The notes under the pieces: generated by a model | Databases searched by the model: none | What the model saw: only the letters and a program-made list of their open reading frames with translations | Told to the model about the DNA's origin: nothing | NCBI GenBank assembly: GCA_963724265.1 | Contig: CAVRTU010000005.1 | Span: forward strand, 280,800-344,799 | Length of the DNA stretch: 64,000 nt | Reading direction: 5' to 3' | Origin: an uncultured Gemmatimonadales bacterium | Lineage (GTDB): Bacteria; Gemmatimonadota; Gemmatimonadetes; Gemmatimonadales; GWC2-71-9 | Made by a program: the position numbers and the translations under genes | Part shown: positions 7,836-24,698 of the stretch, piece after piece | Numbering within the stretch: the first letter of the stretch is position 1 | Layout of the letters: each line of letters opens with the position of its first letter

Positions 7836-7925
7836 TCCTCGCCGGCCCGGGCCGGATCCTCACCACGTGGCATCTTCCCCCCGGGCTTCCCGACTGATAT
7901 CGTAACCGGTCCCTCAGACAATCCG

Positions 7926-9242: not shown

Positions 9243-9258
9243 GCGATGGCGGGGAGTC

Positions 9259-9304
9259 GGGAAACGGGAAAGGCCGGGGGACTCTCCCCGGCCTTTCCCG
9301 TTCC
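9259..9304. terminator. Hairpin between convergent genes (possible bidirectional terminator)
   Basis: gggaaacgggaaaggccgggg / actct / ccccggcctttcccgttcc; ~20-bp stem between the 9242 (+) and 9325 (-) gene ends. Confidence 0.5.
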
Positions 9305-9324
9305 GGCTACCCGCCCGTGCCGCG

Positions 9325-9702
9325 TCAGGGGGGCGGCGGCGGCACAACCGTCACGAAGGCGGTATCCGCGAAGCCGTCGAGCGAGGCGATAATGCTGTCC
9401 AGGCCCAGACCGGCCCCGGTCACGATGCCGCTGACGCCGATCGTCGCGACGGCCGGATTGCTCGTGTTCCAGGTGACCGCCCGGCTGGCCAGCAGGGCGC
9501 CCGTGGCGTCGAGGCCGAATCCGTGCAGGGTATCGACCGCGCCGGGGATCATCTGGAGCGATTCGGGGACGATCCGCACCGCGGCGACCGGGCCGGGCCC
9601 GATGTCCGTGTCGGTGCTGCAGGCGGCCCAGGTCAGAGCCGAGCACAGGCTCAGGGCGACAGCACGACGGGTAGCCGATCCAGGTCCGGTACGAGGCGCC
9701 AT
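9325..9702 (-). CDS. Bacterial Ig-like (Big_2) domain lipoprotein
   Basis: C-terminal part of ORF 9325..10992 read from the internal ATG at 9702: MAPRTGPGSATRRAVALSLCSALTWAAC (lipobox), then VTWNTSNPAVATIGVSGIVTGAGLGLDSIIASL, typical of Big_2. Confidence 0.7.
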   Translation of the reverse strand: MAPRTGPGSATRRAVALSLCSALTWAACSTDTDIGPGPVAAVRIVPESLQMIPGAVDTLHGFGLDATGALLASRAVTWNTSNPAVATIGVSGIVTGAGLGLDSIIASLDGFADTAFVTVVPPPPP

Positions 9703-9821
9703 GTGCTGGCCTCCGGCCCCCGAGGGGCGGCGACAGATGACCCGCGGAAGAATCCGTTGAATCTGCCAATCTGCGGATTCACTGTCAAAGGGCGCGGGAA
9801 GCAGCGTCCCGCGCCCGATGA

Positions 9822-12085
9822 TTACCGCTTCTGCTGGATGTTCCGCTGGATCTCGAGCGCGATCGAGTCCGCCCGGGCGGCCGCGGCGGTGTCCCCCTTC
9901 TGCCGCATGCTGGACGCGGCCCCGCTGTAGGCCACCAGGTAGAGCTGGAGCATCGAGGCGGATGGCGGATCGACCCAGCCGTGCGGCCGGTCCTTGGTGG
10001 CCGTCTGCCAGTGGTAGACATCCCAGAGCAGGTTCATGGTCCGCGGATAGTCGAGATAGGCCAGCCCGCGGTTGAGCAGAATCGTGTCGTTGGGGACCAC
10101 CGCCGTGTATTGCAGCCGGCGGCCGAACCCGGCCGAGACCAGATAGGGGGTCAGGTCGAAGGTCGCGTCCGGGTAATTCCCGTCGCTCCAGCTGAAATAG
10201 ACGGGCCGGGCGCCGATGTTGTCCCGGATCATGAACAGCGTGGCCAGGTCCTTGAGCTCGAGGTACTGGTCGCCGAAGCGGACCTGGAGGCTGTCGAACT
10301 TGACGCCCGAGCCCTTGGGAATGGAAGACAGCTCGGGCAGCGAATCGATCTGGGCCGGGGTGAGCTGCAGCGCCGGCTTGGTGGGGCGCACCCAGGTCCC
10401 GGTGCGCCAGATCGGCGCCGCGCCGGCCGGGTTGAACTCCGGTGTCACCCGGCGCGACAGCTGCTTGAGGTGCCACCGGGTGTTCATCAGCGAGAGGTTG
10501 GCCAGGGTGACGTCGGTCCGGATGCCCTCGACCTCCTGCGCGTACCAGAGCGGGAAGGTGTCGTTGTCGCCGGCGGTGATCAGGATGCCGTAGGGCTCGA
10601 CCGACTGCAGCATGTCGATCGCGGCGTCGCGCGCCATGGTCTCGTTGGCGCGCGACGCCGTCAGCGTGGTTGCCCGCCAGCGGCACCAGCGCCAGGGCCA
10701 GGACCGGCGAGGCGGCGAGCCACCGGCTCCGCTCGCTGCCCCGGGCCTTGAGCGACTCGACGATCGCCGTCATCAGCGCGCCGAGGCCGACCGCCACCCA
10801 GAGGCCGAAGGCCGCGAAGGAGACCACGAAGAAGTAGTCTCGCTCGCGGACCTCGCGGGCCACCTGGTCGCGCCCGATGTCGTACGAGTAGCCGTACTTG
10901 AAATTGAGGTAGAAGATGAGCGCAATGGTCAGCGTGCCCATCAGCGCCGTCGAGGCCGCCGCGGCCCGCTTGTCCTTCTGCCACAGCGTCATCGGCGCCG
11001 AACAGGCCGAGGACGGCGAAGAGCCCGGTGAAGATCCCGTTGGCCGGCGCCCAGTCGCGGGCGAACTGCCAGTTGAAGTACTGCCAGTAGTTGCCGAGCT
11101 GCGAGATGAAATCGGCCTGGCGCTGCCAGACCGGAGGCTTGCCGTACTGGACCCGGTTGAGCACCTCCATCAGCGCGTTGCTGAAGAAGCCGATCGGCTC
11201 GCCCTCGTTGATCGGGGGGAAGTGGGCCGCGCGGATCGGCAGGAAGAGGTAGTTGGGGCCGATCGCGACCAGCACCGCGATCGTGCCCAGATAGAAGATC
11301 GGGCGGCGGAACTCGGCCGGGTCGCTCCAGGCGGTATAGAGCAGCAGGGTGCCGTAGGCCAGGATGATGGCACCGCGTCCCGACATCGGTCCCGTGACCA
11401 GGACGGCGCCCAGCCCCGACACCGCCAGCGCCAGGGTCAGCGCCATCATCAGCACCCACGGCTTGAGCGCCAGGCGCCAGTCGGTCCAGAGGACGTAGGT
11501 CGCCACGGCGATCGACCCCAGCACGCCCATCATGTGATTGGTCGAGCTGATCGCGATGATGTAGGCGATCAGCACCAGCCACCGGTCGCGGTGGGGGCCC
11601 GGCTCGTCGTCCGCCCAGTGCACCCCCAGCCACGTCACCAGCGCCGTGGAAAACATCGAGACGGTGTACACCTTCTCGTTGACCGTGGACTGGTTCCAGA
11701 CCGTCCAGCTCGTGGCCGACACCAGCGTGCCGGCGAAGGCCGCCGCCAGCCGGGCCCAGCGCACCGGGACCACGTCCCGCATCCACCGCTCGGCTACCAG
11801 GAACCAGAGCCCGGCCGAGGCGGCGCTGGTGACCGCGGCGAAGAGGTTGATCCGCACCGCGTAGCTGGCCGCCAGCGGCAGCGCCCCGAAGGTGTGGGCC
11901 AGCATCGTGAACAGCGGATTTCCCGGCGGGTGCGGGATGCCCAGCACATACGCGGCGGCCAGGTACTCGGAGGTGTCCCAGAACGCCGTGGTCGGCGCCA
12001 GCGTGGCCACGTAGATGCCGAAGACGAGCAGCGAGGTCAGTGCGGCGTAGCCGTAGGGAGGGCGGGTCTCGGTCGAGTCGGTCAT
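9822..12085 (-). CDS. DUF2723-family polytopic membrane protein (putative glycosyltransferase), paralog 1; interrupted
   Basis: N-terminal piece is the 10661..12085 frame (TLAPTTAFWDTSEYLAAAYVLGIPHPPGNPLF). The middle piece is the 9325..10992 frame (MTLWQKDK...YLNFKYGYSY...RERDYFFV). The C-terminal piece is 9822..10637 (ITAGDNDTFPLWYAQEVEGIRTDV). Frame changes lie near 10990 and 10680. Confidence 0.8.
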
Positions 12086-12092
12086 GTACCCT

Positions 12093-12176
12093 GGGGAACG
12101 GGGAAAGTGGGAGCAGGAAGCAGGGAGCAGGGGGTGTCGGGAATCATCCCGCTCCCTGCTCCCCTCTCCCTGCTCA
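12093..12176. repeat. Hairpin of GGGAGCA-type tandem words
   Basis: tgggagcaggaagcagggagcaggggg / loop / cccgctccctgctcccctctccctgctc, lying between the DUF2723 start and the purH stop. Confidence 0.7.
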
Positions 12177-12184
12177 CCCGGGTT

Positions 12185-13715
12185 TTAGTGTCTGAACTGC
12201 CGCCGGCCGGTGAACACCATCGCCAGGCCGTGCCGGTCGGCGGCGGCGATCACGTCGGCGTCGCGGATCGAGCCGCCGGGCTGGATGATCGCGGTCACCC
12301 CCGCCGCCGCCGCCTCGTCCACTCCGTCGGCGAAGGGGAAGAAGGCGTCCGAGGCCATCACGGCGCCCTTCGGGTCGTGCCCCTGCTGGCGGGCCTTGTG
12401 CACCGAGAGGAACGAGCTGTCCACCCGGCTCATCTGTCCGGCGCCGATGCCGATGGCCATCTCGTCCCGGGCCAGCAGGACGGCGTTGGACTTGACACTG
12501 GCCACGGCGGCCCAGGCGAACCGGAGGTCGTCCCACTCCGCGTCGGTGGGCGGACGGGAGGTGACCACCTTCCACTCCGCCTCGGAAGGCTCGAAGGTGA
12601 ACCGGTCCTGCAGCAGGAAGCCGCCCCGGATCCGCTTGACGTCGAGGGCCGGCTCGCCGTGGCCGACCGGCAGCTCGACCACGCGGAGGTTCTTCTTTCT
12701 GGCGAAGAGCTGCCAGCGCCTCCTCGTGGAACGAGGGCGCCACCACCACCTCGAGGAAGAGCTCGTCGAGCGCCGCAGCCGCCCGGGCATCCACCACCGT
12801 GTTGAAGGCGACGACCCCGCCAAAAGCCGACTGCCGGTCGCCGGCGACGGCCTTGCGGGCCGCCTCCTCGGCGGTGACCCCGACGGCCATGCCGCAGGGC
12901 GTGGTGTGCTTGATCACGGCGCAGGCGGGGCGGATCGGCCACAGCGCCACGGCGCTCATCGCGGCGTCGAGGTCGAGCAGGTTGTTGAAGGAGAGTTCCT
13001 TGCCCTGGCGCTGCTTGAGGTCGCGGATGCCGCGGGGCTCGTCGGTGGCGTAGAGCGCCGCGCGCTGCGACGGATTCTCGCCGTAGCGCAGTCCCATCAC
13101 CTTTTCGACCGAGACGGTGATCTGGCTGGGCAGCCCGTCCTCGCGGGGAGTCAGGTAGCGCGCGATCGCGGCGTCGTAGTTCGCGGTGTGGCTGAAGACC
13201 TTGGCCGCGAGCTGGCGGCGGCACTCGGTAGACACGGTACCCGCCCGGAGCATCTGAAGCACCCAGCCGTAGTCCGTTGGATCGACCACCACCATCACCG
13301 AGTCGTGGTTCTTGGCGGCGGAGCGCAGCATCGCCGGGCCGCCGACGTCGATGTTCTCGATGGCGTCCTCGAAGCTCACGTTCGGCTTGGCGACCGTTTC
13401 GCGGAACGGATAGAGATTCACCGCCAGCAGGTCGATCGGTTCGATCTTGTGGTGCGCCATCGACGTGCGGTGCTCGGCCAGGTCGCGCCGGCCCAGCAGG
13501 CCCGCGTGGATCACCGGGTGGAGGGTCTTGACCCGGCCGTCGAGGATCTCGGGGAAACCGGTGACCGACTCCACCGTGACCGCCGGGACTCCGGCCGCGC
13601 GGAGAGCGGCGTGGGTCCCGCCGGTGGAGATGATCTGCCAGCCCATCGCCACCAGTTCCTGGGCGAAGGGGACGATGCCGCGCTTGTCGCTGACGGAAAT
13701 CAATGCACGGGGCAT
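12185..13715 (-). CDS. purH: Bifunctional AICAR transformylase / IMP cyclohydrolase; one frame break
   Basis: 12174..13715 frame gives MPRALISVSDKRGIVPFAQEL...KHTTPCGMAVG...APSFHEEAL. The C-terminus is in the 12185..12823 frame (LFARKKNLRVVEL...KSNAVLLARD...IQPGGSIRD...MVFTGRRQFRH). The frame change is near 12715. Confidence 0.92.
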
Positions 13716-13721
13716 GAGGAC

Positions 13722-14328
13722 TCAGCCTCTGGGCTCCTGCGCGAACTGCACCGGGACCGGGTGCCCGGCCCGCGCGGCGGCCAGGACCACGGCCGGGAGC
13801 AGTTGATGTTCGACGTCCAGGACCCGGGCCCCCAGCCGTTCCGGGGTGTCGTCCGGGAGGACGGGGACCCTGGCCTGGGCCAGGATCGCGCCGCGATCGT
13901 AGACTTCGTCCACCAGGTGGACGGTGGCGCCCGACTCGGGCCGGCCCGCGGCCAGCACCGCCTCGTGGACCCGGCGGCCGTACATTCCCCCGCCGCCGAA
14001 TTCCGGAAGCAGGGCAGGGTGGATGTTGATGATCCGGCCCCGGTAACTTCGCGATGACGGCGGCCGGCACCAGCTTGAGAAACCCGGCCAGGACGACCAG
14101 GTCGACCCGTGCCTCCTCGAGATGCCTGAGCCACTCCGCGCCGTCGCGGTGGTCAGCCAGAACCCGGGTGGCCACGCCGTGTTTCCGGGCCCGCTCCAGC
14201 CCTCCGGCCCGCGGAGTGTTGCTCAGGACCAGGACGACTTCCGCCGGGGCCCCCGGGCCGAGGGCCCCGATCAGGGCCTCCAGGTTGCTGCCCCCGCCCG
14301 AAATGCAGACCCCCACCCGCATCGGCAT
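13722..14328 (-). CDS. purN: Phosphoribosylglycinamide formyltransferase; one frame break
   Basis: N-terminus [20 protein letters not shown]...[11 protein letters not shown] (12430..14364 frame). C-terminus ...[38 protein letters not shown] (13722..13985 frame). The frame change is near 14040. Confidence 0.88.
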
Positions 14329-14433
14329 GGCGCAACAAAGTAATCGGCGAGGCGTTCGATTCACAGTCGCGCTACCGGGGCACGGTCGCGCTTCCGCGGG
14401 ACTTGATGCGAGGCGGGAGACTGCGTGGCCGGG

Positions 14434-15546
14434 CTACCCCTTCACCATCCTCCAGGCGTGATACGCCCCACGCGCGACCGTCGATGCGGTCCGCCGGCGG
14501 GCTTGAAGGGTCAGCTCCTTTCCCTTGACCAGTTCCTGCATCGGCATCCCCGCCTCGATCCGGGTTCCTTCCTCCAGCAGTTTCTCCAGCAGCCGGGGAC
14601 GGTCACCGGCCCGGCGGAAGGCGGCCAGGCGCCACTTCATGACCCGCATCATCGGGAACGGCCGGGGCATCGCCCCCAGATGCAGGCGGAGGGGGACGCC
14701 GGCGAGCTCCGCCGCGGCCTGGAGCCAGCGGAGAAGGAGGTCGCGATTGCGGATTTCGCGCGAGGTGAGTCGCTCGCCGATGACGTCCCAGTAGATGGCC
14801 GCGTCGCCCCCCATGAGCACGGCCGCGTCCAGCAGGTAGTGCAGGCGGAATGCGTTCGTCCCCTCACCGGCCGCGTGCGTCAGGGTGTGCCAGAACAGCT
14901 CGGTCACGCTGGGGACGCGCAAGGTGAGCTTGTCGCGCGCGACCACCTGCGACTCGAACATCTGGCGGCGCCAGGCGTCCGGCGGCTTGATCTCGCGCGA
15001 GGTCGAGGTGTGGATCTCCACCGCCACCCGGTTGGCGCCGGCCAGCGGGATCAGGTGCCAGAGGTCGACGGGGGTCAGGTTCGGGTCGGCCGCGAACTTG
15101 TAGCCGGACTTCTTCAGGTCCTCCCAGACCGAGGAAGCGTGCTCGGCCGGAAGCAGCACATCGACATCGATGGTGGAGCGGGCATCGATGTAGGGGTAGC
15201 GGTCGGCCAGGAGCCTGCGGGCGATTCCCTTGAGGAAGACCGCCGGGATGCCGCCGGCGGTGAGCAACTCCGCCAGCCGGATTGCCTCGGCTTCGACCAG
15301 GAGCCCGTTCGCCGTTTCCACCCGGGCCCGCCTGATCAGCCAGGTCCAGAAGGCGGGCGGCAGCTCATCGCCGACGCCCAGTCCCCTGAGGCGCCGGTAC
15401 AACCAGATCGTGACCTGCTCGTAACTGACCAGCTCGCGCAGGCCTGACGGGTCGGTCCGCAGCCAGGCATCCTTGAGACTGGCGGCATCCCACCCCCCGC
15501 GCAGGCGCACTGTCTGGTACAGGACCTCAGCCGCGTTGAGCGTCAT
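14434..15546 (-). CDS. Uncharacterised-nucleotidyltransferase-family protein (NTP_transf_5-like), RiPP-cluster associated
   Basis: 370-aa intact ORF. Its ATG is 3 nt after the B2 stop. IPAVFLKGIARRLLADRYPYIDARSTIDVDVLLP... resembles the nucleotidyltransferase that co-occurs with PqqD/B2/HPr-kinase genes. Family assignment is from memory and not computed. Confidence 0.65.
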   Translation of the reverse strand: MTLNAAEVLYQTVRLRGGWDAASLKDAWLRTDPSGLRELVSYEQVTIWLYRRLRGLGVGDELPPAFWTWLIRRARVETANGLLVEAEAIRLAELLTAGGIPAVFLKGIARRLLADRYPYIDARSTIDVDVLLPAEHASSVWEDLKKSGYKFAADPNLTPVDLWHLIPLAGANRVAVEIHTSTSREIKPPDAWRRQMFESQVVARDKLTLRVPSVTELFWHTLTHAAGEGTNAFRLHYLLDAAVLMGGDAAIYWDVIGERLTSREIRNRDLLLRWLQAAAELAGVPLRLHLGAMPRPFPMMRVMKWRLAAFRRAGDRPRLLEKLLEEGTRIEAGMPMQELVKGKELTLQARRRTASTVARGAYHAWRMVKG

Positions 15547-15549
15547 TGA

Positions 15550-15966
15550 TCAGGTTGCCGCGGAGGGATCGGGGAAGACAGCGATCACGGTGTGGGCTCC
15601 CGGCGCCTCCGGTTCGGGTTCGAGGTAGAGCAAGTTCTCGAGCAGCAGCCAGGCGTGGGCGGCCAGCTTCCCGTCGGGCCCCCGCCGGACCCCGATGACC
15701 AGTTGCAGCGGACGCCCGGCCCCGCGCAGCAGGTGATAGAGTACCGCGGCCCGCTTGAGACAGGTATACCGCCAGGGGCCCGGCAGCCGGCGCAGAACAT
15801 CATCCACCCAGCCGGCCAGGGCCGCGTCCTCGAAGGGCGGCATCGGGCGACGCTGCCCCAGGCGGGCCACCAGCCGCTGGAACGAGACGAGCAGGATCAG
15901 CGGCGGGATCCACAGCGAGGCCGCCAGAGCCCGTATCCGGATCCCCACGGACAACCGCTCACTCAC
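15550..15966 (-). CDS. Lasso-peptide B2-type leader peptidase (transglutaminase-core-like cysteine protease)
   Basis: ORF track 15550..16005. The preferred GTG at 15966 forms a GTGA overlap with the PqqD stop. Has candidate catalytic Cys (PWRYTCLKRAAVLYHLL) and His (GKLAAHAWLLLENLLYLEP); ~138 aa. Confidence 0.8.
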   Translation of the reverse strand: MSERLSVGIRIRALAASLWIPPLILLVSFQRLVARLGQRRPMPPFEDAALAGWVDDVLRRLPGPWRYTCLKRAAVLYHLLRGAGRPLQLVIGVRRGPDGKLAAHAWLLLENLLYLEPEPEAPGAHTVIAVFPDPSAAT

Positions 15967-16238
15967 TCGCTGCGGTCCTCGATGACCAGCTTGGCGCCGA
16001 GGCACCGGTCGAGGAAGTGCCGGGCGCTCACTTCCGCCTTCTCGGGCGTCACCTCGAAGCGCTTGACCAGGGCGGCGCCGATTTCGGCCAGCGTGGCTGA
16101 GGGCTTCAGGGCCTCGAGGATGGCCAGTCCGGTCTCGTTGACGGTGAAATAGCGCCGGCTGCCGAGATGGAGCACTACGCCCTCGCCCTCGAGGGCGGTC
16201 AGGCGGAGCTCCGGGTGAGCGCGGTATCGGGTCGTCAT
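15963..16238 (-). CDS. PqqD-family RiPP recognition element (lasso B1-like)
   Basis: Internal ATG at 16238 forms an ATGA overlap with the kinase stop. 91 aa: MTTRYRAHPELRLTALEGEGVVLHLGSRRYFTVNETGLAILEALKPSATLAEIGAALVKRFEVTPEKAEVSARHFLDRCLGAKLVIE, the PqqD pattern. Confidence 0.8.
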   Translation of the reverse strand: MTTRYRAHPELRLTALEGEGVVLHLGSRRYFTVNETGLAILEALKPSATLAEIGAALVKRFEVTPEKAEVSARHFLDRCLGAKLVIEDRSE

Positions 16239-17227
16239 GGGGGTGCGATGGTTGCGAGAATGGACGGATCGAGGAAGAGGTCCCGTCCCAGGATGACGCG
16301 GAGGCACCGGGCCTGCCGGGCCAGGGCGTTGAGGAGATCGAGATGCGATTGGGCCAGGTCGGGCTCCAGCGCCACCCAGGCCGACCAGCGCACCAGCTCC
16401 GCGAGCACCTCGGCTCCCCGGATTGGCTGGGCTGAAGTGTAGTCGGTGCCGACGCTGGTGAAGAGAATGATGTCAGGATGGACGGTCCCGATCCAACGGC
16501 CGCCGAGTTCTTCGGGCGTGAAGAGCCGCTTGCCCCGCTGCGCGATCAATCGGCCCCCCCGGCGCGCCAGGAATTGCTGCCCCTCTGGCCGGAGGGCGAT
16601 CGGCGTCCGGTAGGCGTGGACGACGACCTCCGGGCCCGAGCGAGACAGGAAGGCGATGTCGTCGCAGCCGACTTCCCACCCCAGGCTGGCCAGCAGGGCC
16701 GCGGTCGTGGATTTGCCGGCGTGAGTGTTGCCAGCCAGGAGCCAGCCGCGGCCTGCTGGATCCACGGCGGTCGCGGCGTGGACGTGGTGCCACCCCACCC
16801 GGCGCAGCAGGAAGATGAGGGCGACCATCCCGAATCCGCGGAGGCACTCATCCAGGCGATCGTGCGCCTCGGGGGAGAGGATCAGTTCCGCCTCGGCTGT
16901 CTGGCCGTTCAGCCTGGCAACTGCGGGGGCGCCCTCCCACGAGACGAGAACCTCGCCTTGGGGCTCACCCCCCGAGCGGATCAGAACGTTTCCCTGTCTG
17001 AAAGTGGGCCGTGTATCGGTCGAGAGGTCGGGCGGGGAGCCGATTTCGACCCGAATCGTCAGCGGACGGGGCGGGGTCAGCTCCGATCCGTCGAGCCAGG
17101 TCTGGATTGCCCGGGTCAGTTCGGGATGGGCGCCGATTACCGTGAAGGAGGGCACGGGGGAAAGATCACCCGCCCACCAATCGAAACGCCAGACTCTCGA
17201 GGGAGTCTGGCGTTTGGTGCCGCTCAA
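16235..17227 (-). CDS. HPr-kinase-related (HprK C-terminal-like) P-loop kinase
   Basis: 330-aa ORF. Walker A LLAGNTHAGKSTTAALLA followed by GCDD, as in HprK-like RiPP kinases. The TTG start at 17227 is doubtful because the first codons overlap a hairpin; a GTG at 17155 is an alternative. Confidence 0.75.
   Translation of the reverse strand: MSGTKRQTPSRVWRFDWWAGDLSPVPSFTVIGAHPELTRAIQTWLDGSELTPPRPLTIRVEIGSPPDLSTDTRPTFRQGNVLIRSGGEPQGEVLVSWEGAPAVARLNGQTAEAELILSPEAHDRLDECLRGFGMVALIFLLRRVGWHHVHAATAVDPAGRGWLLAGNTHAGKSTTAALLASLGWEVGCDDIAFLSRSGPEVVVHAYRTPIALRPEGQQFLARRGGRLIAQRGKRLFTPEELGGRWIGTVHPDIILFTSVGTDYTSAQPIRGAEVLAELVRWSAWVALEPDLAQSHLDLLNALARQARCLRVILGRDLFLDPSILATIAPP
17184..17214 (-). terminator. 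Hairpin after precursor A1 (attenuator/partial terminator candidate)
   Basis: Minus-strand RNA AAACGCCAGACUC-CCUCGA-GAGUCUGGCGUUU, a 13-bp stem with a weak U tract. The stem core ACGCCAGACU is shared with the terminator after A3. Confidence 0.45.
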
Positions 17228-17245
17228 TACTGGGAACTGAGCCGA

Positions 17246-17368
17246 TCAGCCGGGGCAGTTCTCACCGGTGCAGGGAGCAAGGTCCCCGGAAGCAAGCGTC
17301 AGTTCAGCCAGCGAGGCCTCTTCAGTGAGTGTGGGCTCAACGAAGGGCTTTCTTTCGACGTGCGGCAT
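17246..17368 (-). CDS. RiPP precursor peptide A1 (40 aa)
   Basis: Not in the ORF track (<60 aa). My translation: MPHVERKPFVEPTLTEEASLAELTLASGDLAPCTGENCPG*. AGGAGG sits 5 nt upstream of the ATG. The leader is homologous to A2/A3. Confidence 0.75.
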   Translation of the reverse strand: MPHVERKPFVEPTLTEEASLAELTLASGDLAPCTGENCPG

Positions 17369-17452
17369 CGGTGCCTCCTGAGCGGGTAAGTGCGGAGTCC
17401 CCTCTCCAAGGGACGACGTCGCCTTTCTCGCAATTCTCGCACCGCTACAAAT

Positions 17453-17461
17453 CGTGATGTT
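17453..17461 (-). promoter_or_regulatory. Conserved upstream box AACATCACG (A1 copy)
   Basis: Identical 9-mer 85 nt upstream of the A1 ATG, within a locally AT-rich stretch containing TTGACT. Flanking similarity continues to ...ATTGC about 25 nt downstream. Confidence 0.4.
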
Positions 17462-17571
17462 GATTAGTGTAAGTCAATATTTTATTTGCACTTGTAAATC
17501 TTCGGTATCTGCAATTCCGGACCCATGTCGGCAGGATTCATCAACAGCGATGGGAGAGGCGGGTGTGACAA

Positions 17572-17598
17572 CGCCGGATTTCCTGGGGAAATCCGGCG
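17572..17598 (-). terminator. Hairpin after precursor A2
   Basis: cgccggatttcc-tgg-ggaaatccggcg, a 12-bp stem 26 nt after the A2 stop, followed on the minus strand by UUGU only. Confidence 0.45.
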
Positions 17599-17624
17599 CT
17601 GACACTGCTGGGTGAGGCGTTGGC

Positions 17625-17813
17625 TCAGTTGCGATCGCGACCGTAGGCATGGCCGTGGCCGTGACTATGACGCTGGCCTTGGCTCTGGCCCTGGTCAAAT
17701 TGCTGGGCCGAGGCACTGCTGGCGGGGGACCCGGAAGTCAGGGTGATGTCCGCAAGGTCCGCCTCTTCGACAACTGTGGGATCCACAAAGTGCTGTTTCG
17801 TCGTGTCCGGCAT
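17625..17813 (-). CDS. RiPP precursor peptide A2 (62 aa)
   Basis: ORF track: MPDTTKQHFVDPTVVEEADLADITLTSGSPASSASAQQFDQGQSQGQRHSHGHGHAYGRDRN. GGAGG SD. The leader aligns with A1/A3. Confidence 0.75.
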   Translation of the reverse strand: MPDTTKQHFVDPTVVEEADLADITLTSGSPASSASAQQFDQGQSQGQRHSHGHGHAYGRDRN

Positions 17814-17903
17814 AGGTACCTCCGTTAAGGCAGGCGAACCCTATGTCCTCCCGGCACAGGAATCACGATTATCAGGATAAGCAATGCGCGGGCCAAAGCG
17901 ATA

Positions 17904-17912
17904 CGTGATGTT
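17904..17912 (-). promoter_or_regulatory. Conserved upstream box AACATCACG (A2 copy)
   Basis: Identical 9-mer exactly 91 nt upstream of the A2 ATG, the same spacing as for A3. Confidence 0.4.
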
Positions 17913-18028
17913 CGGGATCATAACACGATGGGGCATCATAGGTTCAGAAGGTACTATAGGGCAATCGCTAGCTGACTGTGGCCTGCCTCCCTCACCGAAT
18001 CTGTGGACCCGCCGCCAACTCAACGAGC

Positions 18029-18068
18029 CAAAACAAAGACGCCAGACTCGGCTTTCAGTCTGGCGTCT
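18029..18068 (-). terminator. Intrinsic terminator after precursor A3
   Basis: Minus-strand RNA AGACGCCAGACU-gaaagccg-AGUCUGGCGUCU followed by UUGUUUUG. Confidence 0.7.
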
Positions 18069-18096
18069 GCACTCCCGAGGAAGATTCCGAGGGGGC

Positions 18097-18216
18097 TCAG
18101 TGGTGATGTCTGTCGTACACCCTGGGGCTGGTATTCGAGGTCAGGGTGATCTCGGCCAGTTGTGCTTCCTCGGTGAGCTTGGGCTCAACAAAGGGCCTTC
18201 TCATCGCTTCGGACAT
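18097..18216 (-). CDS. RiPP precursor peptide A3 (39 aa)
   Basis: Not in the ORF track. My translation: MSEAMRRPFVEPKLTEEAQLAEITLTSNTSPRVYDRHHH*. GGAGGAG SD upstream. Confidence 0.75.
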   Translation of the reverse strand: MSEAMRRPFVEPKLTEEAQLAEITLTSNTSPRVYDRHHH

Positions 18217-18306
18217 ACTCTCCTCCAATTGGGCAGGGGCCATCGGCACCCGTTCGACGCTCATGGTTCGGCAACCTTACGGTGCAATCTCCAAGCCACT
18301 GCAATT

Positions 18307-18315
18307 CGTGATGTT
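18307..18315 (-). promoter_or_regulatory. Conserved upstream box AACATCACG (A3 copy)
   Basis: Identical 9-mer 91 nt upstream of the A3 ATG. Confidence 0.4.
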
Positions 18316-18422
18316 GAAAATTACAACACCTTGCATCGCAATGGCATCGGAATGTGCCAAATGTGGACCCCTGCATCACTGTGGGCCGGACCCCTCATCG
18401 GATCTGTGGAGTGCCCGCACCT

Positions 18423-19022
18423 TCATCGGGTGGCGAGAATCCACCGCGCGGCAGCCGCCAGGTCATCCTCCAGCACGAATTCGGAAGTTGAATCCATTCC
18501 CGTCGGCGCTGCCGGAAGACCGGGACCAACCCCGATTCCTCGGCCCCCCAGCAGTCTTGCCGGCAGGAGGTCCGTCACCCGATCTCCTATCCACCAGCTC
18601 TGCGCCGGGTCGATGCCAAATCGTTCGATGGCCCGCCGGTAGAGATCCAGCCCGGGTTTCCGACAGCCGCAGGGGCCGCTGATTTCGGGCAGGTGCGGGC
18701 AATGGTACTGGGCATCCGGGGCTCCACCCGCCTGTGCTAACAGTTCGGCCGTCCGGGCCGCCACCGCCTCGTACTGCCTGGGGGTGATCAGGCCGCGAGC
18801 GATTCCCGACTGGTTGGTCACGATGATCAGCAGAAAGCCGGCTCGCTTGAGGCTTGCCGCGGCCTCGCCCGCCCCGGGCAGCAGACGGACCTGTACGGGA
18901 TCGTTGAGGTATCCGGGATCCTCAAGCAGGGTCCCGTCCCGGTCGAGAAAGACCGCTCGTCGAGGGGCAGAGGGGCGGAGGGGCCCTAAAGGACTCCCTG
19001 TCGGTCGCAGGGGGGCAGCCAC
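18423..19022 (-). CDS. gmhB: D,D-heptose 1,7-bisphosphate phosphatase-like HAD-IIIA hydrolase
   Basis: C-terminal third of ORF 18423..20393: AVFLDRDGTLL (DxDxT), IIVTNQSGIARG, YHCPHLPEISGPCGCRKPG (zinc-site pattern), WWIGDRVTD. The putative GTG start at 19022 is uncertain. Confidence 0.75.
   Translation of the reverse strand: MAAPLRPTGSPLGPLRPSAPRRAVFLDRDGTLLEDPGYLNDPVQVRLLPGAGEAAASLKRAGFLLIIVTNQSGIARGLITPRQYEAVAARTAELLAQAGGAPDAQYHCPHLPEISGPCGCRKPGLDLYRRAIERFGIDPAQSWWIGDRVTDLLPARLLGGRGIGVGPGLPAAPTGMDSTSEFVLEDDLAAAARWILATR
18961..19017. repeat. GGGGCAGA-word array plus conserved motif copy 2
   Basis: gaggggcagaggggcggagg + GGCCCTAAAGGACTCCCTGTCGGTCGC (18982-19008, plus strand, antisense to the flanking genes) + agggggg. 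Confidence 0.7.
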
Positions 19023-19023
19023 G

Positions 19024-20393
19024 CTACTCCTCAAGCGCCCGCTTGAGAGCGCCGCCGACCAGGTTCGAAGCTTGCTTCCGGGAAGCGTCCGTGGATCGAG
19101 AAGGACCCTGCCGTTGGCCACGCGCGTGATCACCGGTGGGTCGCCCAGGCGAAGCCGAAGGGCGAGGCCGTCGGCCCCAAGCGGTCCCGGGTCGATAGCG
19201 ATGAGCGTGGTGGGCAGCGCGGCCCCGGGGAATGCTCCCCCGCCGACGGCGGACTCCCCCCTGAGCAGGGCGGGCGGGCGGGCGGGGGGGAGGGCGGGAA
19301 CCAGTGAGCGATGGAGACTCTGCGCCTGCGCTTCCAATTCAGCGGCGCTCCTGGTGAGCATGCGGAGTACCGGGATTTCCTCGCGGGCCCGGGCCGGATC
19401 ACGGTACAGCGACAGCGTCGCCTCGAGGGCGGCGAGGGTGAATCGATCGGGCCGTACCGCCCTCGCGAACGGGGCCCGACGGCAGCGTTCCACCAGCTCC
19501 CCACGCCCTACCAGGCACCCCGCCTGCGGCCCGCCCAGCAGCTTGTCCCCGCTGAACAGCACGAGGTCCGCCCCCGCGGCGACTGCCTCCGGCACCCGGG
19601 GCTCATCGGTCAGCCCCCACGGGGTGAGGTCCGCCAGCAGCCCGCTCCCGACGTCGTGCAGGTAGGGCACTCCCGCCTCGTGCGCCAGCTCCGCCAGCGC
19701 CGAGGGCGGCGGGGTGGCGACGAATCCCCGCTGCTCGAAGTTGGAGCGGTGCACGGTGAGGATCGCCGCGGCGCCATCGAGGCCCCGCCGGTAGTCGTCG
19801 AGGTGGGTCCGGTTCGTCGTGCCCACTTCCAGCAGCCGCGCCCCGCTCGTGGCCAGGATGTCCGGGATCCGGAAGCTGCCCCCGATCTCGATCAGCTCGC
19901 CCCGTGAAATCAGCACCGGCCGCCCCGCCGCCACCGTCGAGAGCGCGAGGACCAGCGCCGCCGCCGCGTTGTTGACTGCAAGTGCGTCCTCCGCCCCCGT
20001 GAGTTCACTGAGCAGGGCGCGGCAATGATCGGCACGCTGCCCCCGCGTGCCCGAGTCCAGGTCGTACTCCAGGGTGCTGTAGTCGCGGGCCACCGCCGCC
20101 ATGGCGTCGGTGGCGGCAGCGGCAAGGGGAGCACGGCCCAGGTTGGTGTGGAGCACCACACCGGTGGCGTTGAGCACCGGTCGGAGTGACCGGGTGACCC
20201 TGCGCGCCAGTCGCTCGGCGATGTCACCGGCCCAGTCTGGAGGGACTCCCGAGCGGCCCGAGCGGGCGGATTCAAGTGACTCCCGAATCGCCGCCACCAG
20301 GACGGAGCGGGGGTGGGCCTGCAACAACTCCACGAGGGCCGGCTCCGACAGCAGCCGGTCGACCGATGGCAGGTTCCGACGGGGGTCGGTCAT
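19024..20393 (-). CDS. selA: L-seryl-tRNA(Sec) selenium transferase; 3' end frameshifted into gmhB in this sequence
   Basis: MTDPRRNLPSVDRLL...VLNATGVVLHTNLGRAPL...LVLFSGDKLLGGPQAG (PLP-Lys region)...RVANGRVLLDPRTLP. The plausible C-terminus KQASNLVGGALKRALEE* is in another frame, ending at TAG 19024-19026. The frame change is near 19075. Confidence 0.85.
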
Positions 20394-21620
20394 CGGGGCC
20401 TGGTCGAATCGCCGGCTGCCGGCGAGCCCGCCGGCGGGCGAGCGGTGGAATCGGCCTTAGTCGCTTTCGATTCCGGCACCGCCAGACCGCCCCGGACATT
20501 GCCGGTGGCTCCACCCAGCCCGCGAAGGCCGCTGATCTCCAGCACGTACTTGTTGCCGGGAACGAAGGGTGTCGGCATCCGGATCACCAGGCGGTCCTGC
20601 AGGGCTGGGCGCTGGGCCAGCAGGGCGGCAAGGCCGACGGTGTCAGGCGCTGCCTTCGCCCCCTTGACCGCCTTGCCAGGCGGGGGGACCGGCCGGGCCG
20701 GTACCGGTGCGGCGGGTTTGGGTGTTGTCGTGTCGGCCCTCTCCGCCTCGGCCCGCTGGCGGGCGCGAAGACTGTCCTGCTCGGCCCTGGTGACGAGGCT
20801 TGCGCCCTCGACGACGACCGAGTCGGGCAGGGCGAGGAGGCGGAAAGAGGCGAAGGGTGGCGAGCTGTAGGGATCGAGCGGCCCGGTGAACTCGACCGTC
20901 GCTGCGGTGCTGTCCTCCACGGCGATCGACTGGATCCGCGGCGGCACGGTGTCGTGCGGCTGCAGCCAGAGGGCGGGCACCTCGCGTGCTGTCCTCGCCC
21001 ATCCGGATCGTGTCGGAAAGCTCGCGGGAATCGAGCCGGCGATTGCGGTTCTGGTCGACGAAGGCCTGCATCAGGTACTGCCCCGCCGGCAGAGGTGCCA
21101 GGTCGTAGCGTCCACCCGAGTCGGCATAGGCCAGGTAGGGGAGGCTGTCGGGCAGCAGCACCGCCGCGACCAGGGCGCCGCGCCCCACCTGCCGCGTGGT
21201 CCAGTCCACCACTCGTCCCCGCAGCCGGCGAGTCGGGAGCGGTGCTCCCGTGGTGAACGTGACGACGACCAGGGAATCCTCGGCGTTGTTGCGGATGTCT
21301 TTCACCCCGGGAAGCAGCTCGACCCGGTAGACCCGGTTGGGGCGCCACCCTTCCTTGGGCCGGACGCTGAGCCGGCTGCGGTGCCAGCCGACGTCCGGCA
21401 CATTCGGGCGTGGGAGAGACCAGGACCAGGCGTTCGAGCTCGCTGGTTCCCGTCCCGAGGCTCGGAGTGCCTCCCTCCGACAGGGTTTCGTCGAACTGGA
21501 ACTCGACGTCCCCCTTGAATTCGGGATAGACCCCCAGCGACTCGGGGACGGTGGACAACAGCCGCGGCGGCGCCTTGTCGGGTGGGCCGCCGGGCGGCGG
21601 GACCCATTCGGGCACAGGAG
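20390..21620 (-). CDS. Ig-like-domain (Big_5/SbsA-type) envelope protein; several frame breaks, N-terminus unresolved
   Basis: Pieces lie in three frames: ...LSTVPESLGVYPEFKGDVEFQFDETLSEGG..., then ...WHRSRLSVRPKEGWRPNRVYRVELLPGVKDIRNNA...GRYDLAPLPAGQYLMQAFVDQNRNRRLD..., then 20390..20980 (...IQSIAVEDSTAATVEFTGPLDP...NKYVLEISGLRGLGG). Confidence 0.5.
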
Positions 21621-21715: not shown

Positions 21716-24404
21716 TCACGCCGCGCCGAGCTGCGCCAGCTTCGCTTCCAGCGCCTGCGCCTGCTGGCGCCAGCTGGCGAGCTTCTCCCTCTCCTTGTCG
21801 ACGATCTCCGCGGGGGCCCGGGCCACGAATTGCTCGTTGCCCAGCTTCTTCTCCTGGCCGGCGACGAGCCCGTTGAGCCGCTCGGTTTCCTTGGCCAGTC
21901 GGGCCCGTTCCTGGGCCAGGTCGATGGCGTCACCGAGCGGGACGAAGACGGTGGTGCCGTCGGACAGCACGGCGCTGCCACCGGGCTCGCGGGGAGGCTG
22001 GCCAAACTCGATCGGTCCGGTGCGGGCCAGGCGCTGGATCGTCGCCAGCTCGCTTTCGAACGCCTCGTGGCGGGCCGAGACCCAGGCCCGCACCTGCTGG
22101 CCGGGCTGGATGCCGTACTCGGCGCGGATGGTCCGGATGGCGCCGACCAGCTCCTGGACCAGGGCGAAATCGCGAAGCGCTGCGTGGTCGGCGGCGCGGC
22201 GGTCGCTCTCCGGCCAGGGCGAGGTGATCAGCGTGGCCTCCCGGCGCGCGACCCGGGAAGCGACGCCAGAGCGTCTCGGTGATGAACGGCATGACCGGGT
22301 GGAGCAGCTGGAGCGCCACCTCGAAGGTCCGCTGCGCCACGGCGCGCGCCACGTCGCCGCCCGGCTGGTCGCCGTAGAGCCGCGGCTTGATCTGCTCGAT
22401 GTACCAGTCGGCCAGGTCGCTCCAGAGGAAGTGGTAGACCACCGCCGCCGCGTCGTTGAGCCGGAACCGCTCGTAGGCCAGCGTCGCCTCGAGCACCGTG
22501 GCCTCGCAGCGGGCGATGATCCAGCGGTCGGCGAGGGTCAGCTCCTCGCGTCGGATCACGCCGGGACGCTGCCCGGCCAGCGGCCGGACCGGGCCGTCGA
22601 GGTTCGAGAGCAGGAACCGGCCCGCGTTCCAGATCTTGTTGGCGAAGTTGCGCCCCGGCGCGAACGATGCCTCGAGGTCCTCGGGATCGAGGATCAGGTC
22701 GGTGCCCACCGCCATGCCGGCGATGATGGTGTAGCGCAGGGCGTCGGCCCCGAAGCGCTCGACCACGTCGAGCGGGTCGATCCCGTTGCCCAGCGACTTC
22801 GACATCTTGCGATGCTGGGTGTCGCGCACCGTGCCGTGCAGGTACACCGTGGTGAAGGGCAGCTCGCCCATGAACTCGAGCCCGGCCATCACCATCCGGG
22901 CCACCCAGAAGAAGAGGATCTCCGGCGCGGTGACCAGGGTGTCGCCGGGGTAGAATGCCCGCGAGGTCCTCGGTCCGGTCGGGCCAGCCCAGGCTGCTCA
23001 TCGGCACCAGCCAGGAGCTGAACCAGGTGTCGAGCACATCCTCGTCCTGGCGCACCGGCCCGCGGCAGGCGGGGCAGGCCTCGAGGCCGGTGCGGCTCAC
23101 GTGGGCGCCGCCGCAGGCCGGGTCCTCGCAGTACCAGACGGGAATCCGGTGCCCCCACCAGAGCTGCCGGGAGATGCACCAGTCGCGGATGTTCTCCATC
23201 CACTGGGCGTAGTCCTCGCCCCGGCGCTCGGGGATGAACCGGAGCGGCGCCGGAGCGATAGGCGGCCAGCGCGGGGGCGGCGAGCGGCGCCATCCGCACG
23301 AACCACTGCTCGGAGAGGCGGGGCTCGACCACCGTGTCGCAGCGATAGCAGTGGCCCACGGCGTGGGTGTGCGGCTCGGTCTTCCGGAGCAGGCCGAGGC
23401 GCTCGAACTCCCGGACCACGAGCTTCCGGACCTCGAAGCGGTCGCGGCCGGCGAAGAGGTTCGGCAGGTCGTCGGTCATCCGGCCATCGGCCTGGATCAC
23501 CTCGATGGCCGGCAGGCCGTGACGCCGGCCGATCTCGAAGTCGAGCGGGTCGTGGGCCGGCGTCACCTTGACCGCGCCGGTGCCGAACCTGGGATCGATC
23601 TCCTGGTCGGCGATGACCGGGATCCGCCGCTCGACGATCGGGAGCAGCACCTCCCGCCCGATCAGCTCGCGATACCGGGGGTCGTCGGGATGCACCGCCA
23701 CGGCGGTGTCGCCCAGCATCGTCTCCGGCCGGGTGGTCGCGACGGTGATCACCCCGGAGCCGTCGGCCAGCGGGTAGTCGAAGTGCCAGAGGTGGCCCGT
23801 CACCTCCTCCTTCTCCGCCTCCTCGTTGGAGAGGGCGGTGAGGCAGCGCGGGCACCAGTTGATGATGTACTTGCCCCGGTAGATCAGTCCCTTCTCGTGC
23901 AGCGCGCACGAAGGCCTCGCGCACGGCGCGGGAGAGGTTCTCGTCCAGCGTGAAGTAGGTGCGGGACCAGTCGGCGCTCGAGCCGATGGCCTTGAGCTGG
24001 TCGAGGATCACGGGGCCGGTCTCGCGGACGTGCTCCCAGACCCGGGCCTCGAACGCCTCGCGCCCCAGGTCGAAGCGGGTCTTCCCCTCCTTGGCGAGCA
24101 GCTTCTCGACCACGTTCTGGGTGGCGATGCCGGCGTGGTCGGTGCCCGGAAGCCAGAGCGCCTGGCGGCCCCGCATCCGCTCGAAGCGGACCAGCGCGTC
24201 CTGGATGCTGTTGTTGAGCCCGTGACCCATGTGGAGGATCGAGGTCACGTTGGGCGGCGGCATCATGATCACGTAGGGGCGCGGACTCACCGGGCCCGGG
24301 GCGCCTGTGGCGTGAACAGGCCGGCCGCGAGCCACTCGCGGTAGAGCGCGGGCCTCGAGGCCGGTCGGATTGTACTGGGGTGGAAGAGGCTCGGTCATGC
24401 CCAT
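21716..24404 (-). CDS. valS: Valyl-tRNA synthetase; at least 6 frame breaks
   Basis: Fragments in the ORF track: 23097..24404 ([16 protein letters not shown]), 22889..23803 ([11 protein letters not shown]...[13 protein letters not shown]), 22228..23199 ([23 protein letters not shown]), 21930..22904 ([12 protein letters not shown]) and 21716..22093 (coiled-coil C-terminus). Frame changes lie near 24347, 24295, 23905, 23250, 22960 and 22255. Confidence 0.92.
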
Positions 24405-24539
24405 GAGGTGGTCGTGGAGCCGGCCCGGCGCCTGCCCGCGCCGGCACGAGGCCCTCTTACATCGGGATTCAGGAAGCGGTTAACTTAACACCGCTGAAGG
24501 GGTTGGCGCAGGAGATCAGGACCGAATCGAGGAGGCTGC

Positions 24540-24698
24540 ATGAGCGAAGACCATACCACACTCACCAGGGCCGAGCTGGCGCGCTGGCTGCTGCTGGGCG
24601 CCGTCCTGCTGGCGGGGATCGTCGCCTACTTCGCGTACGGCCCCCGGGCCGACTCGCTGCATGCCGTCGCTCCCACCGCCGCCGAGGAATCGAAGTGA
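24540..24698 (+). CDS. Small (52 aa) single-TM ORF translationally coupled to thrS
   Basis: Not in the ORF track. [61 protein letters not shown]. Its TGA overlaps the thrS GTG (GTGA at 24695-24698). No homology evidence. Confidence 0.35.

Follow-up and report, generated by a model that had tools for sequence, protein, structure and literature searches.

The window analysed here, 64 kb of DNA from an uncultured soil Gemmatimonadales bacterium, carries three small open reading frames (ORFs), A1, A2 and A3, followed on the same (minus) strand by an operon of four enzyme genes, K, B1, B2 and N; in a first-pass annotation of this DNA, the ORFs had been proposed to encode peptide precursors with a lasso-type leader. 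The enzyme operon is directly downstream of the precursors and translationally coupled; in the order A, K, B1, B2, N, neighbouring enzyme genes overlap by 4 nt or are separated by 3 nt. Precursor A3 (18097..18216, 39 aa) is composed of leader MSEAMRRPFVEPKLTEEAQLAEITL and, after the predicted cut, core TSNTSPRVYDRHHH; A2 (17625..17813, 62 aa) reads ...HFVDPTVVEEADLADITL up to the cut, with core TSGSPASSASAQQFDQGQSQGQRHSHGHGHAYGRDRN; and A1 (17246..17368, 40 aa) has leader MPHVERKPFVEPTLTEEASLAELTL and core ASGDLAPCTGENCPG. A hidden Markov model (HMM) of the leader matched the three with E-values of 1e-17, 2e-17 and 3e-17, respectively, while scans of the peptides against Pfam and NCBIfam returned no family match. 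Translation on the minus strand, which the first-pass annotation had not named, reproduced exactly the three peptides quoted there, and the strong Shine-Dalgarno boxes that it reported were found ahead of each ORF (GGAGGA for A3, GGAGG for A2 and AGGAGG for A1). An alternative ATG at 18264 would allow a 55-aa reading of A3, but GGAGGA lies 5 nt ahead of the ATG at 18216 and the 39-aa form was called in an independent assembly, and the shorter form was therefore preferred. The exact A3 sequence occurs in public sequence collections, and A1 (identical to P0141) is present on four contigs from NCBI, ENA and Logan.

The assembly of the window is rich in frameshifts. The genes valS (21930-24404), thrS (24503-26584) and purH (12174-13715) are split across frames, and at 18423-20393 a single 656-aa ORF joins SelA and a HAD phosphatase, which L001, L058 and L059 encode as two distinct genes. 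The peptides were therefore checked in other assemblies. Two of these, L058 and L059 (the latter from a 3.59-Mb contig), represent the window organism itself and encode A1, A2 and A3 peptides identical to those of the window. Alignment of the window with L059 revealed 57 gaps over 20 kb, none of them in the cluster, and the 4.2-kb cluster region is 99.3-99.6% identical to L058 and L059 with 0-1 gaps. A Logan short-read contig also contains 62-aa and 40-aa ORFs, spaced as in the window. Since the long His-rich tail of A2 is identical in L058 and L059 and of equal length in the short-read contig, a frameshift artefact was ruled out as its origin. Elsewhere in the family, the precursor of L001 (9802-9990, a long-read locus) has a 37-residue tail, while the same precursor in L002 (1442-1555, short-read) stops after ...TSDTSGNPGITG; as a single-base indel can inflate core length in this way, long cores from long-read metagenome-assembled genomes (MAGs) need checking.

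More than 350 close homologues of K were found, all named ones originating from Gemmatimonadales MAGs, and the order A(1-3)-K-B1-B2-N recurs in about 50 Gemmatimonadales loci. Because this order is kept beside unrelated flanking genes, we regard the cluster as a self-contained module. The first-pass annotation had suggested searching homologous clusters for the leader, and an HMM built from seven leader sequences detected one to three small ORFs adjoining the operon in nearly every one of these loci for which upstream sequence was available (E 1e-6 to 1e-18). A profile search of 5.8 billion proteins gave 431 matches, every named one from Gemmatimonadales. Pooling the precursors of the related loci with those from the protein search yielded 161 distinct precursors, whose consensus FVxPxLxEEASLAxVTL-[IV]-S-G-G gives way to a hypervariable tail. 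Position 1 is Phe in 159 of the 161; position 19 is Ser in 151 and Thr in 8; and position 20 is Gly in 137. Among 60 distinct leader segments derived from the loci, Pro4 is found in 59, Thr16 in all 60 and Leu17 in 59. The core tails span 6-57 residues (median 26), and Gly (27%), Ser, His (10%), Asn and Arg are abundant in them. Entropy by codon position, computed over 60 distinct DNA segments that code for leaders, was 0.74 (first), 0.62 (second) and 1.43 (third), and the codons of invariant residues such as Thr16 differ in their third base only. Third positions thus vary about twice as much as the first and second, indicating that the precursor ORFs are translated genes under selection. At the sequence level, A1 to A3 are therefore confirmed as genuine precursors of a RiPP (a peptide made by the ribosome and modified after translation) with a leader in lasso register.

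The first enzyme gene, K (16235..17155, minus strand like the other three), encodes a putative P-loop peptide kinase of the HprK/PEPCK fold with 306 aa, its GTG start being assigned from homologues and spacing. Database matches of K to ScmC/HprK_rel_A and PF27840 are weak, but the family profile aligns to the P-loop and DD pair of L. casei HprK/P (1jb1, E 1.4e-3), and Foldseek searches with an AlphaFold2 (AF2) model (pLDDT 90.7) led to PEPCK and HprK/P with a probability of 1.0. Conserved residues among 47 K sequences are G143, K149, S150, D166, D167, H125 and H127; both G143-x4-G148-K149-S150-T151 and D166-D167 are invariant, so that the P-loop (GxxGxGKS/T) and DD signature of the HPr kinase/phosphorylase fold is present. 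B1 (15963..16238, 91 aa, overlapping K by 4 nt) is a discrete PqqD-type RiPP recognition element (RRE), matching PF05402 (E 3e-13) and the lasso_PqqD models. Its best matches among Protein Data Bank (PDB) entries are the lasso RREs PbaB1 (9x90), TfuB1 and TbiB1, and it keeps a Tyr aligned with the conserved Tyr of TfuB1, TbiB1, PbaB1 and BsfB1, a residue thought to contact Thr(-2) of the leader (PMC10368454).

B2 (15550..15966, 138 aa), which overlaps B1 by 4 nt, belongs to the lasso-type leader peptidases, Cys proteases of the transglutaminase fold; it matches NF033537 lasso_biosyn_B2 (E 4e-17, 62.7 bits against a cut-off of 33) and PF13471 (E 4e-15). For C82, H117 and E129 (numbering of the 151-aa ORF; the Glu follows the His by 12 residues), conservation across 40 sequences is 95% or higher. 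The last gene, N (14434..15546), encodes a 370-aa enzyme of nucleotidyltransferase fold (PF14907, NTP_transf_5, E 1e-25) with conserved motif residues K106-G107, D127-x-D129, E177 and H179. Its AF2 model (pLDDT 89.4) has a Pol-beta nucleotidyltransferase (NTase) fold, for which Foldseek returned MenT1, LnuA, ANT(2'')-Ia and FKRP, and a homologue search found 23 close relatives with no characterised homologue among them. Single-sequence searches of the PDB with K, N and B2 gave no match; only the K profile and B1 gave weak ones. The catalytic residues of K, B2 and N are at least 95% conserved across 39-47 sequences, and the three enzymes are therefore presumably active. The cluster is flanked by housekeeping genes, SelA and the HAD phosphatase on one side and purN/purH on the other. 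Two homologues of TMEM260-like protein O-mannosyltransferases (PF11028) are encoded in the window, at 10661-12085 on the minus strand and at 56715-58076 on the plus strand, one of them only a few kb from the operon.

Lasso leaders carry the motif YxxPxLx3Gx5Tx with Thr at position -2. The proposal that the window leaders are in the same register held, since F1, P4, L6, A10 and T16 match this motif in all three ORFs, and the register F1, P4, L6, A/G10, T16 is likewise found in the 60 distinct leader segments, with Phe in place of Tyr and Ala in place of Gly. In addition to this leader, the cluster has the discrete RRE B1 and the transglutaminase-fold Cys protease B2 of lasso pathways. However, a lasso cyclase was missing, as the first-pass annotation had claimed: none is encoded in the 64-kb window and no cyclase-type PP-loop gene lies within 10 kb at 49 distinct genome loci, the rest of the 3.6-Mb genome being outside this search. 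The PP-loop motif SGGxDS, sought in the window and 57 loci, gave nothing beyond TilS or GuaA (in the window, the sole occurrence in a plausible gene is in TilS at 51789), and none of the genes called in 10 annotated loci matches PF00733. In the window, the ten largest ORFs beyond the stretch whose genes have Pfam labels in the sister assembly L059 are housekeeping genes, including DeoC, a Ser/Thr kinase, enolase, malate synthase, an M16 peptidase, FtsH, a TMEM260-like protein and a tRNA synthetase. N as a substitute for the cyclase, adenylating a carboxylate, was judged unlikely, given its Pol-beta NTase fold and relatives that modify hydroxyl groups.

The cores point in the same direction. 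The reported lack of Asp or Glu at core positions 7-9, where A1, A2 and A3 have PCT, SSA and RVY, was borne out by translation. Throughout the family, 88 of 161 cores (55%) are devoid of any Asp or Glu, 35 have one at positions 7-9, 132 begin with Ile or Val, and four cores are shorter than seven residues (VSPPPV, QSPGPT, QTSAVL and FTGLNT). Shifting the cut by one residue would produce Ser1...Asp9 in A3 but not in A1 or A2, and family-wide the share with Asp or Glu at 7-9 would still be 11 of 62; this option was rejected. The view that the cores cannot form a lasso ring therefore extends from the window to the family. Without a cyclase, with most cores lacking an acidic residue and with some of only six residues, we conclude that these are not lasso peptides.

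The intergenic DNA of the precursors contains three strong predicted hairpins on the minus strand, one behind each ORF, for which z values were computed against shuffles. A terminator-like hairpin follows A3 (18037..18068), with a 12-bp stem and then the T-tract TTTGTTTTGG (dG -26 kcal/mol, z -4.7). The one after A2 (17565..17605), corresponding to inverted repeat I1, has no T-tract (dG -32 kcal/mol, z -9.1), and the one between A1 and K (17184..17215) corresponds to inverted repeat I3 and direct repeats D6 and D7 (dG -27 kcal/mol, z -4.6). Upstream of A3 and A1, also on the minus strand, are two copies of direct repeat D2: TCAACATCACGAATTGCAGTGG (18296..18317, about 100 nt before A3) and TCAACATCACGATTTGTAGCGG (17442..17463, about 95 nt before A1; 86% identity to the A3 copy), giving the 22-nt consensus TCAACATCACGAwTTGyAGyGG. 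Its core, AACATCACG, is also present upstream of A2 (17904..17912, minus strand) and lies 103-124 nt upstream of the FVxP codons of all window precursors as well as those of L001, L009 and L011, making it a candidate promoter or operator element. The stems of the hairpins at 17184-17215 and 18037-18068 are nearly identical (ACGCCAGACTC...GAGTCTGGCGT), and these hairpins of A1 and A3 are 853 nt apart, which is the period of the upstream repeat. This likeness and spacing indicate that the precursor units arose by duplication of a whole cassette of putative promoter, ORF and terminator. An Rfam scan of 14000-19000 detected no known RNA family.

The first-pass annotation had singled out the Ser two residues after Thr-Leu as a candidate modification site, and the family agrees with this choice, with Ser in 151 and Thr in 8 of the 161 precursors. 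The accompanying remark on known lasso kinases, which gave their target as a C-terminal Ser, is outdated: in the bsf lasso cluster of Bradymonas sediminis, BsfK phosphorylates core Ser3 rather than the C-terminus, in a leader-dependent reaction accelerated by BsfB1 (Duan et al., 2023; PMC10368454), and in the Linear Polyphosphorylated Peptides (LPPs), lasso relatives of Bacillota, LppK adds one to four phosphates to core Ser3 of linear peptides, the unphosphorylated precursor being cleaved poorly (Popov et al., 2026; PMC13381572). Judging from its conservation, Ser19 is most likely (poly)phosphorylated and the product linear.

Given the genes and their conservation, the intact catalytic motifs, the absence of a cyclase at the locus and the features of the precursor family, we consider A1 to A3, with a probability of roughly 70%, to be precursors of a cyclase-less RiPP pathway derived from lasso biosynthesis, the products of which are most likely short linear peptides (poly)phosphorylated near the N-terminus. 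The reactions, their sequence and the precise point of cleavage are deduced by analogy with BsfK/BsfB1/BsfB2, LppK and PsmN, the NTase of pseudomycoidin biosynthesis. In the proposed pathway, each precursor gene would be transcribed from its own upstream region and end in its own hairpin, which would supply more mRNA for the peptides than for the enzymes. B1 would bind the FVxPxL part of the leader, and K, aided by B1, would add one or more phosphates to the near-invariant Ser19, which follows the aromatic residue by 18 positions and sits within T-L-x-S-G. B2 together with B1 would then cut after Thr16-Leu17, a site suggested both by the lasso rule, which places Thr at -2, and by the Tyr retained in B1 that has been implicated in Thr(-2) recognition. 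The released core would begin with x-pSer-Gly and continue into a hypervariable tail in which Gly, His and basic residues are often abundant, and N may add a further group to the phosphate, such as a hexose or a nucleotide-derived moiety.

Several points weigh against this pathway. The similarity between K and BsfK is confined to the segment from the P-loop to DD and amounts to 14 bits, and in the search of B1 against the PDB the RRE of the LPPs, LppB (9x8z), went undetected at E <= 10; as the homology to characterised systems is distant, the site specificity could differ. The operon encodes no exporter, and one lineage (represented by L006) has no B2. The role given to N rests on pseudomycoidin, as LppN was inactive in heterologous expression of the LPP system, and the cyclase search covered 64 kb of a 3.6-Mb genome. 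Moreover, of the 161 family members, 23 have a C-terminal Thr and 89 a C-terminal Ser, typically within ...GHGHNS or ...HSS. Since paeninodin-type kinases classically act on such a Ser, the C-terminus could be the target of the kinase, or one of its targets, in much of the family. This cannot apply to A1, A2 and A3, since they end in G, N and H, respectively.

Other explanations for the cluster were weighed against a pathway to linear, N-proximally phosphorylated peptides. Short ORFs upstream of an operon with hairpins behind them might be regulatory upstream ORFs, attenuator peptides or chance ORFs, spurious ORFs being plentiful in GC-rich genomes. Against this, 60 distinct DNA segments preserve the N-terminal 19 residues and vary synonymously at third codon positions, there are one to three paralogues per locus, each with its own hypervariable C-terminus, the leader matches an RRE-binding motif with a dedicated RRE encoded next door, and in the lineage of L006 the precursor ORF is located downstream of N, and we give this explanation hardly any credence. 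It is also very unlikely that the products are true lasso peptides closed in trans by a macrolactam synthetase encoded elsewhere in the genome. The lasso register of the leader, the bona fide lasso-type proteins B1 and B2, the 35 cores with Asp or Glu at positions 7-9 and the limited part of the genome inspected are all compatible with such an enzyme, but most cores are not: 88 have no acidic residue, four are too short, A1 to A3 have no Asp or Glu at 7-9, and position 1 is mostly Ile or Val. Furthermore, neither a PP-loop nor an Asn-synthase gene was found in the window or within 10 kb at the 49 loci, and cyclase-less relatives with linear products have been documented experimentally (PMC13381572).

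Two further alternatives accept a RiPP pathway and differ in the site or nature of the modification. In one, the kinase targets the C-terminal residue in the manner of paeninodin and pseudomycoidin, leaving Ser19 as a recognition or cleavage determinant only. PadeK- and PsmK-type kinases do phosphorylate a C-terminal Ser, and the 89 cores ending in Ser and 23 ending in Thr would suit them; however, the Gly, Asn and His termini of A1 to A3, together with the many others in G, A or V, show that a C-terminal Ser is not a family-wide site, whereas Ser/Thr19 is 99% conserved and falls on the positions mapped for LppK and BsfK, which makes exclusive C-terminal modification rather unlikely. In the other, N directly nucleotidylates Ser or Thr (with AMP or UMP) or transfers a phospho-alcohol onto it, yielding products of the peptidyl-nucleotide type, with K acting elsewhere. 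N does keep an intact G-S/DxD nucleotidyltransferase core, and its structural neighbours include the O-nucleotidylyltransferases LnuA and ANT(2'') and the CDP-ribitol phosphotransferase FKRP. Yet PsmN, the only relative characterised in a RiPP context, needs prior phosphorylation and adds 162-Da units, and K and N co-occur strictly in all loci with nothing that hints at a second substrate of K; we therefore regard direct nucleotidylation as improbable.

The suggestion that the core C-termini are rich in metal ligands and make the products metal-binding peptides is still an inference. His-rich tails recur in the family, 78 of 161 cores having at least three His and 85 containing HGH, GHG or HH motifs, but they are not universal, and many cores are without ligand side chains (e.g., TSPIAEPV and VSGSTGGGGGGVPT). 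A polyphosphate group would add further metal ligands. Two Cys are present in only three of the 161 cores, namely ASGDLAPCTGENCPG of A1 (17246-17293), LSCVDPNDPACQSI and LSCTDPNDPACQGV (L055/P0234), where the Cys pair may close a disulfide loop instead of holding a metal. In the lineage of L003, L004, L005 and L017 (locus 7131-20918), the flanking genes encode an ECF sigma factor, a protein of the Metal_resist family (PF13801), an RND efflux system of CzcB type and a two-component system. Such surroundings, reminiscent of metal stress, may be relevant to metal binding; the core of the lineage, TSPIAEPV, has no His or Cys.

The related loci differ in what surrounds the module. Among 34 non-redundant loci with enough downstream sequence, 16 have a Wzt/Wzm ABC-2 exporter unit next to N, 16-250 nt downstream of it (L009, L016, L018, L019, L023, L027, L030, L033, L035, L037, L038, L043, L047, L050, L053 and L056). 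The unit consists of an ABC_tran protein with a Wzt_C carbohydrate-binding domain and an ABC2_membrane protein, and where both genes were seen they converge on the 3' end of N; where these loci diverge most, Wzt identity is as low as 53-63%. A galactokinase gene is additionally found upstream in ten loci, and the locus of the window has neither the Wzt/Wzm nor the galactokinase genes. In the lineage of L006, L007, L008 and L021 (locus 9285-12656), the operon is K-B1-N without a B2 gene, the precursor (…VTL, cut, VSGSTGGGGGGVPT) lies downstream of N, and a gene for a ClpP-family protease (PF00574, E 5e-62) is divergently oriented 120 nt upstream of K; this lineage may represent another replacement of the leader peptidase. 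A search of 1.84 billion representatives with the K profile gave 1407 relatives (E <= 1e-10). One distant ScmC-like kinase, P0307 on a JGI contig (3300056388), matched the K profile with E 1e-30 and adjoins a radical-SAM enzyme, with a B1/B2-like pair of PqqD and Transglut_core3 proteins about 5 kb downstream and again no cyclase. B1/B2 pairs may thus serve several non-lasso pathways.

Linear phosphorylated relatives of lasso peptides are already known from the LPPs, published in 2026, and this type of locus is therefore not unprecedented. Our literature searches on cyclase-less lasso clusters, on the combination of Pfam accessions and on lasso RiPPs of Gemmatimonadota found nothing relevant, and as far as the literature searched shows, the Gemmatimonadales cluster is an undescribed variant, differing from LPPs by phylum, by the presence of B2, by the lack of an exporter in the operon, by its Phe-type motif and by its short hypervariable cores. 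If the proposed pathway is correct, linear phosphorylated lasso-related RiPPs would reach beyond Bacillota into an abundant and mostly uncultured soil phylum, and the lasso cyclase would have been lost more than once, with different leader peptidases kept (B2 here and SpI in LPPs). The family would then offer a natural experiment in which B1/B2 and an HprK-like kinase act on the same leader without ring formation, as well as hundreds of natural substrate variants for biochemistry, some of only six residues. Genome-mining tools keyed on B1/B2 are likely to mislabel such loci as lasso clusters. Possible roles of the products are metal binding and a link to the export of envelope polysaccharides.

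Among known systems, ScmC-type cassettes (TIGR04249 SynChlorMet ScmC; TIGR04352 and TIGR04353 HPr-rel-A), which pair an HprK-like kinase with a PqqD chaperone, provide the best NCBIfam matches of K and B1, all sub-threshold with scores of 20 against cut-offs of 125-200 bits, and Pfam labels K homologues PF27840 'ScmC'; in contrast to the window, these cassettes have radical-SAM or other partners and no B2. The paeninodin and pseudomycoidin clusters (PMC8498205, PMC6993621) share with the window the tailoring pair of an HprK-like kinase and a PF14907-type NTase. The psm cluster has psmK, psmB1, psmB2 and psmN, with psmN following psmB2 as N follows B2, and PsmN, which adds one or two hexoses to phosphoserine (PMC6993621), shares its distant structural neighbours, ANT(2'')-Ia (5cfs, 4xje), with N. 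Polyphosphorylation of the precursor before leader removal is a further feature that these systems have in common with the proposed pathway. Unlike the window cluster, they encode a cyclase and an exporter, phosphorylate a C-terminal Ser and have WxxP or YxxP leaders.

LPP clusters consist of one to three precursors with variable C-termini, LppK, the RRE LppB, the SipW-like LppS, an exporter and the NTP-transferase LppN, without a cyclase, and were described as restricted to Bacillota (PMC13381572). A discrete lasso-like RRE, a kinase resembling HprK, an NTP-transferase and the lack of a cyclase are thus shared with the window family, K and N being compared with LppK and LppN by description. 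The LPP leader motif YxxPxVLxHQxIxFETxxS (PMC13381572) has spacing identical to that of the window leaders for the aromatic residue 1, Pro4, the aliphatic residues 6 and 12, Thr16 and Ser19, whereas the intervening residues differ (LxHQxI instead of EEASLA, and ET instead of TL). The conserved Ser of the window family corresponds in position to the mapped polyphosphorylation site of LppA, one to three precursors with hypervariable C-termini are common to both, and a polysaccharide-gene neighbourhood is shared with LPPs and paeninodin, represented here by Wzm/Wzt at 16 of 34 loci. On the other hand, LPPs use the serine peptidase LppS, while the Gemmatimonadales family has the Cys protease B2 and no LppS-type gene in the operon or among annotated neighbours; LPPs have the MsbA-like exporter LppD, which has no counterpart in the Gemmatimonadales operon; and the leader starts with Tyr in LPPs but with Phe in the Gemmatimonadales precursors, the cores of which are far shorter (6-57 aa, median 26) and which belong to a different phylum, Gemmatimonadota rather than Bacillota.

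A likeness in gene set also exists to the bsf cluster, which comprises A, B1, B2, C, D, K and N, and in which BsfB1 and BsfB2 excise the leader (PMC10368454). Published bsf gene sequences were translated and scored with our family HMMs, resulting in 36 bits for B1 on BsfB1, 17.7 for B2 on BsfB2 and 14 for K on BsfK. BsfA, ...YKKPQLTYHSTLAAIIR, cut, GTSGNEVD..., aligns residue for residue with ...FVEPTLTEEASLAELTL, cut, (T/A/V)SG..., and the essential BsfK residues H148, G163, K169, S170, D186 and D187 correspond to H125/H127, G143, K149, S150, D166 and D167 of K with equal G-K-D spacing. Both clusters thus have A, K, B1, B2 and N, and the Ser phosphorylated by the bsf kinase is N-proximal and stands within T-S-G. 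In contrast, bsf encodes the cyclase BsfC and the ABC exporter BsfD, both absent at the window operon, and makes a lasso, its core having the ring-forming Gly1 and an acidic acceptor where the Gemmatimonadales peptides have no Gly1 and mostly no acidic residue; at -2 the bsf leader has Ile, the Gemmatimonadales leaders Thr. Since B1 detects PbaB1 but not LppB in the PDB and B2 is retained, the sequences suggest that the Gemmatimonadales pathway came from a Bsf-like Gram-negative lasso cluster, in parallel to the Bacillota LPPs and not descended from them. As a tentative extension, to which we attach less than even odds, the family may be an independently evolved Gram-negative counterpart of the LPPs, in which a Bsf-like pathway lost its cyclase, kept B1/B2 and now makes a large and rapidly diversifying set of very short linear phospho(glyco)peptides, of which about half have His/Gly-rich tails and, with the polyphosphate group, would serve as secreted or envelope metal binders exported in many lineages by an adjacent Wzm/Wzt transporter, and would then constitute a distinct subclass of B2-dependent linear phosphopeptides.

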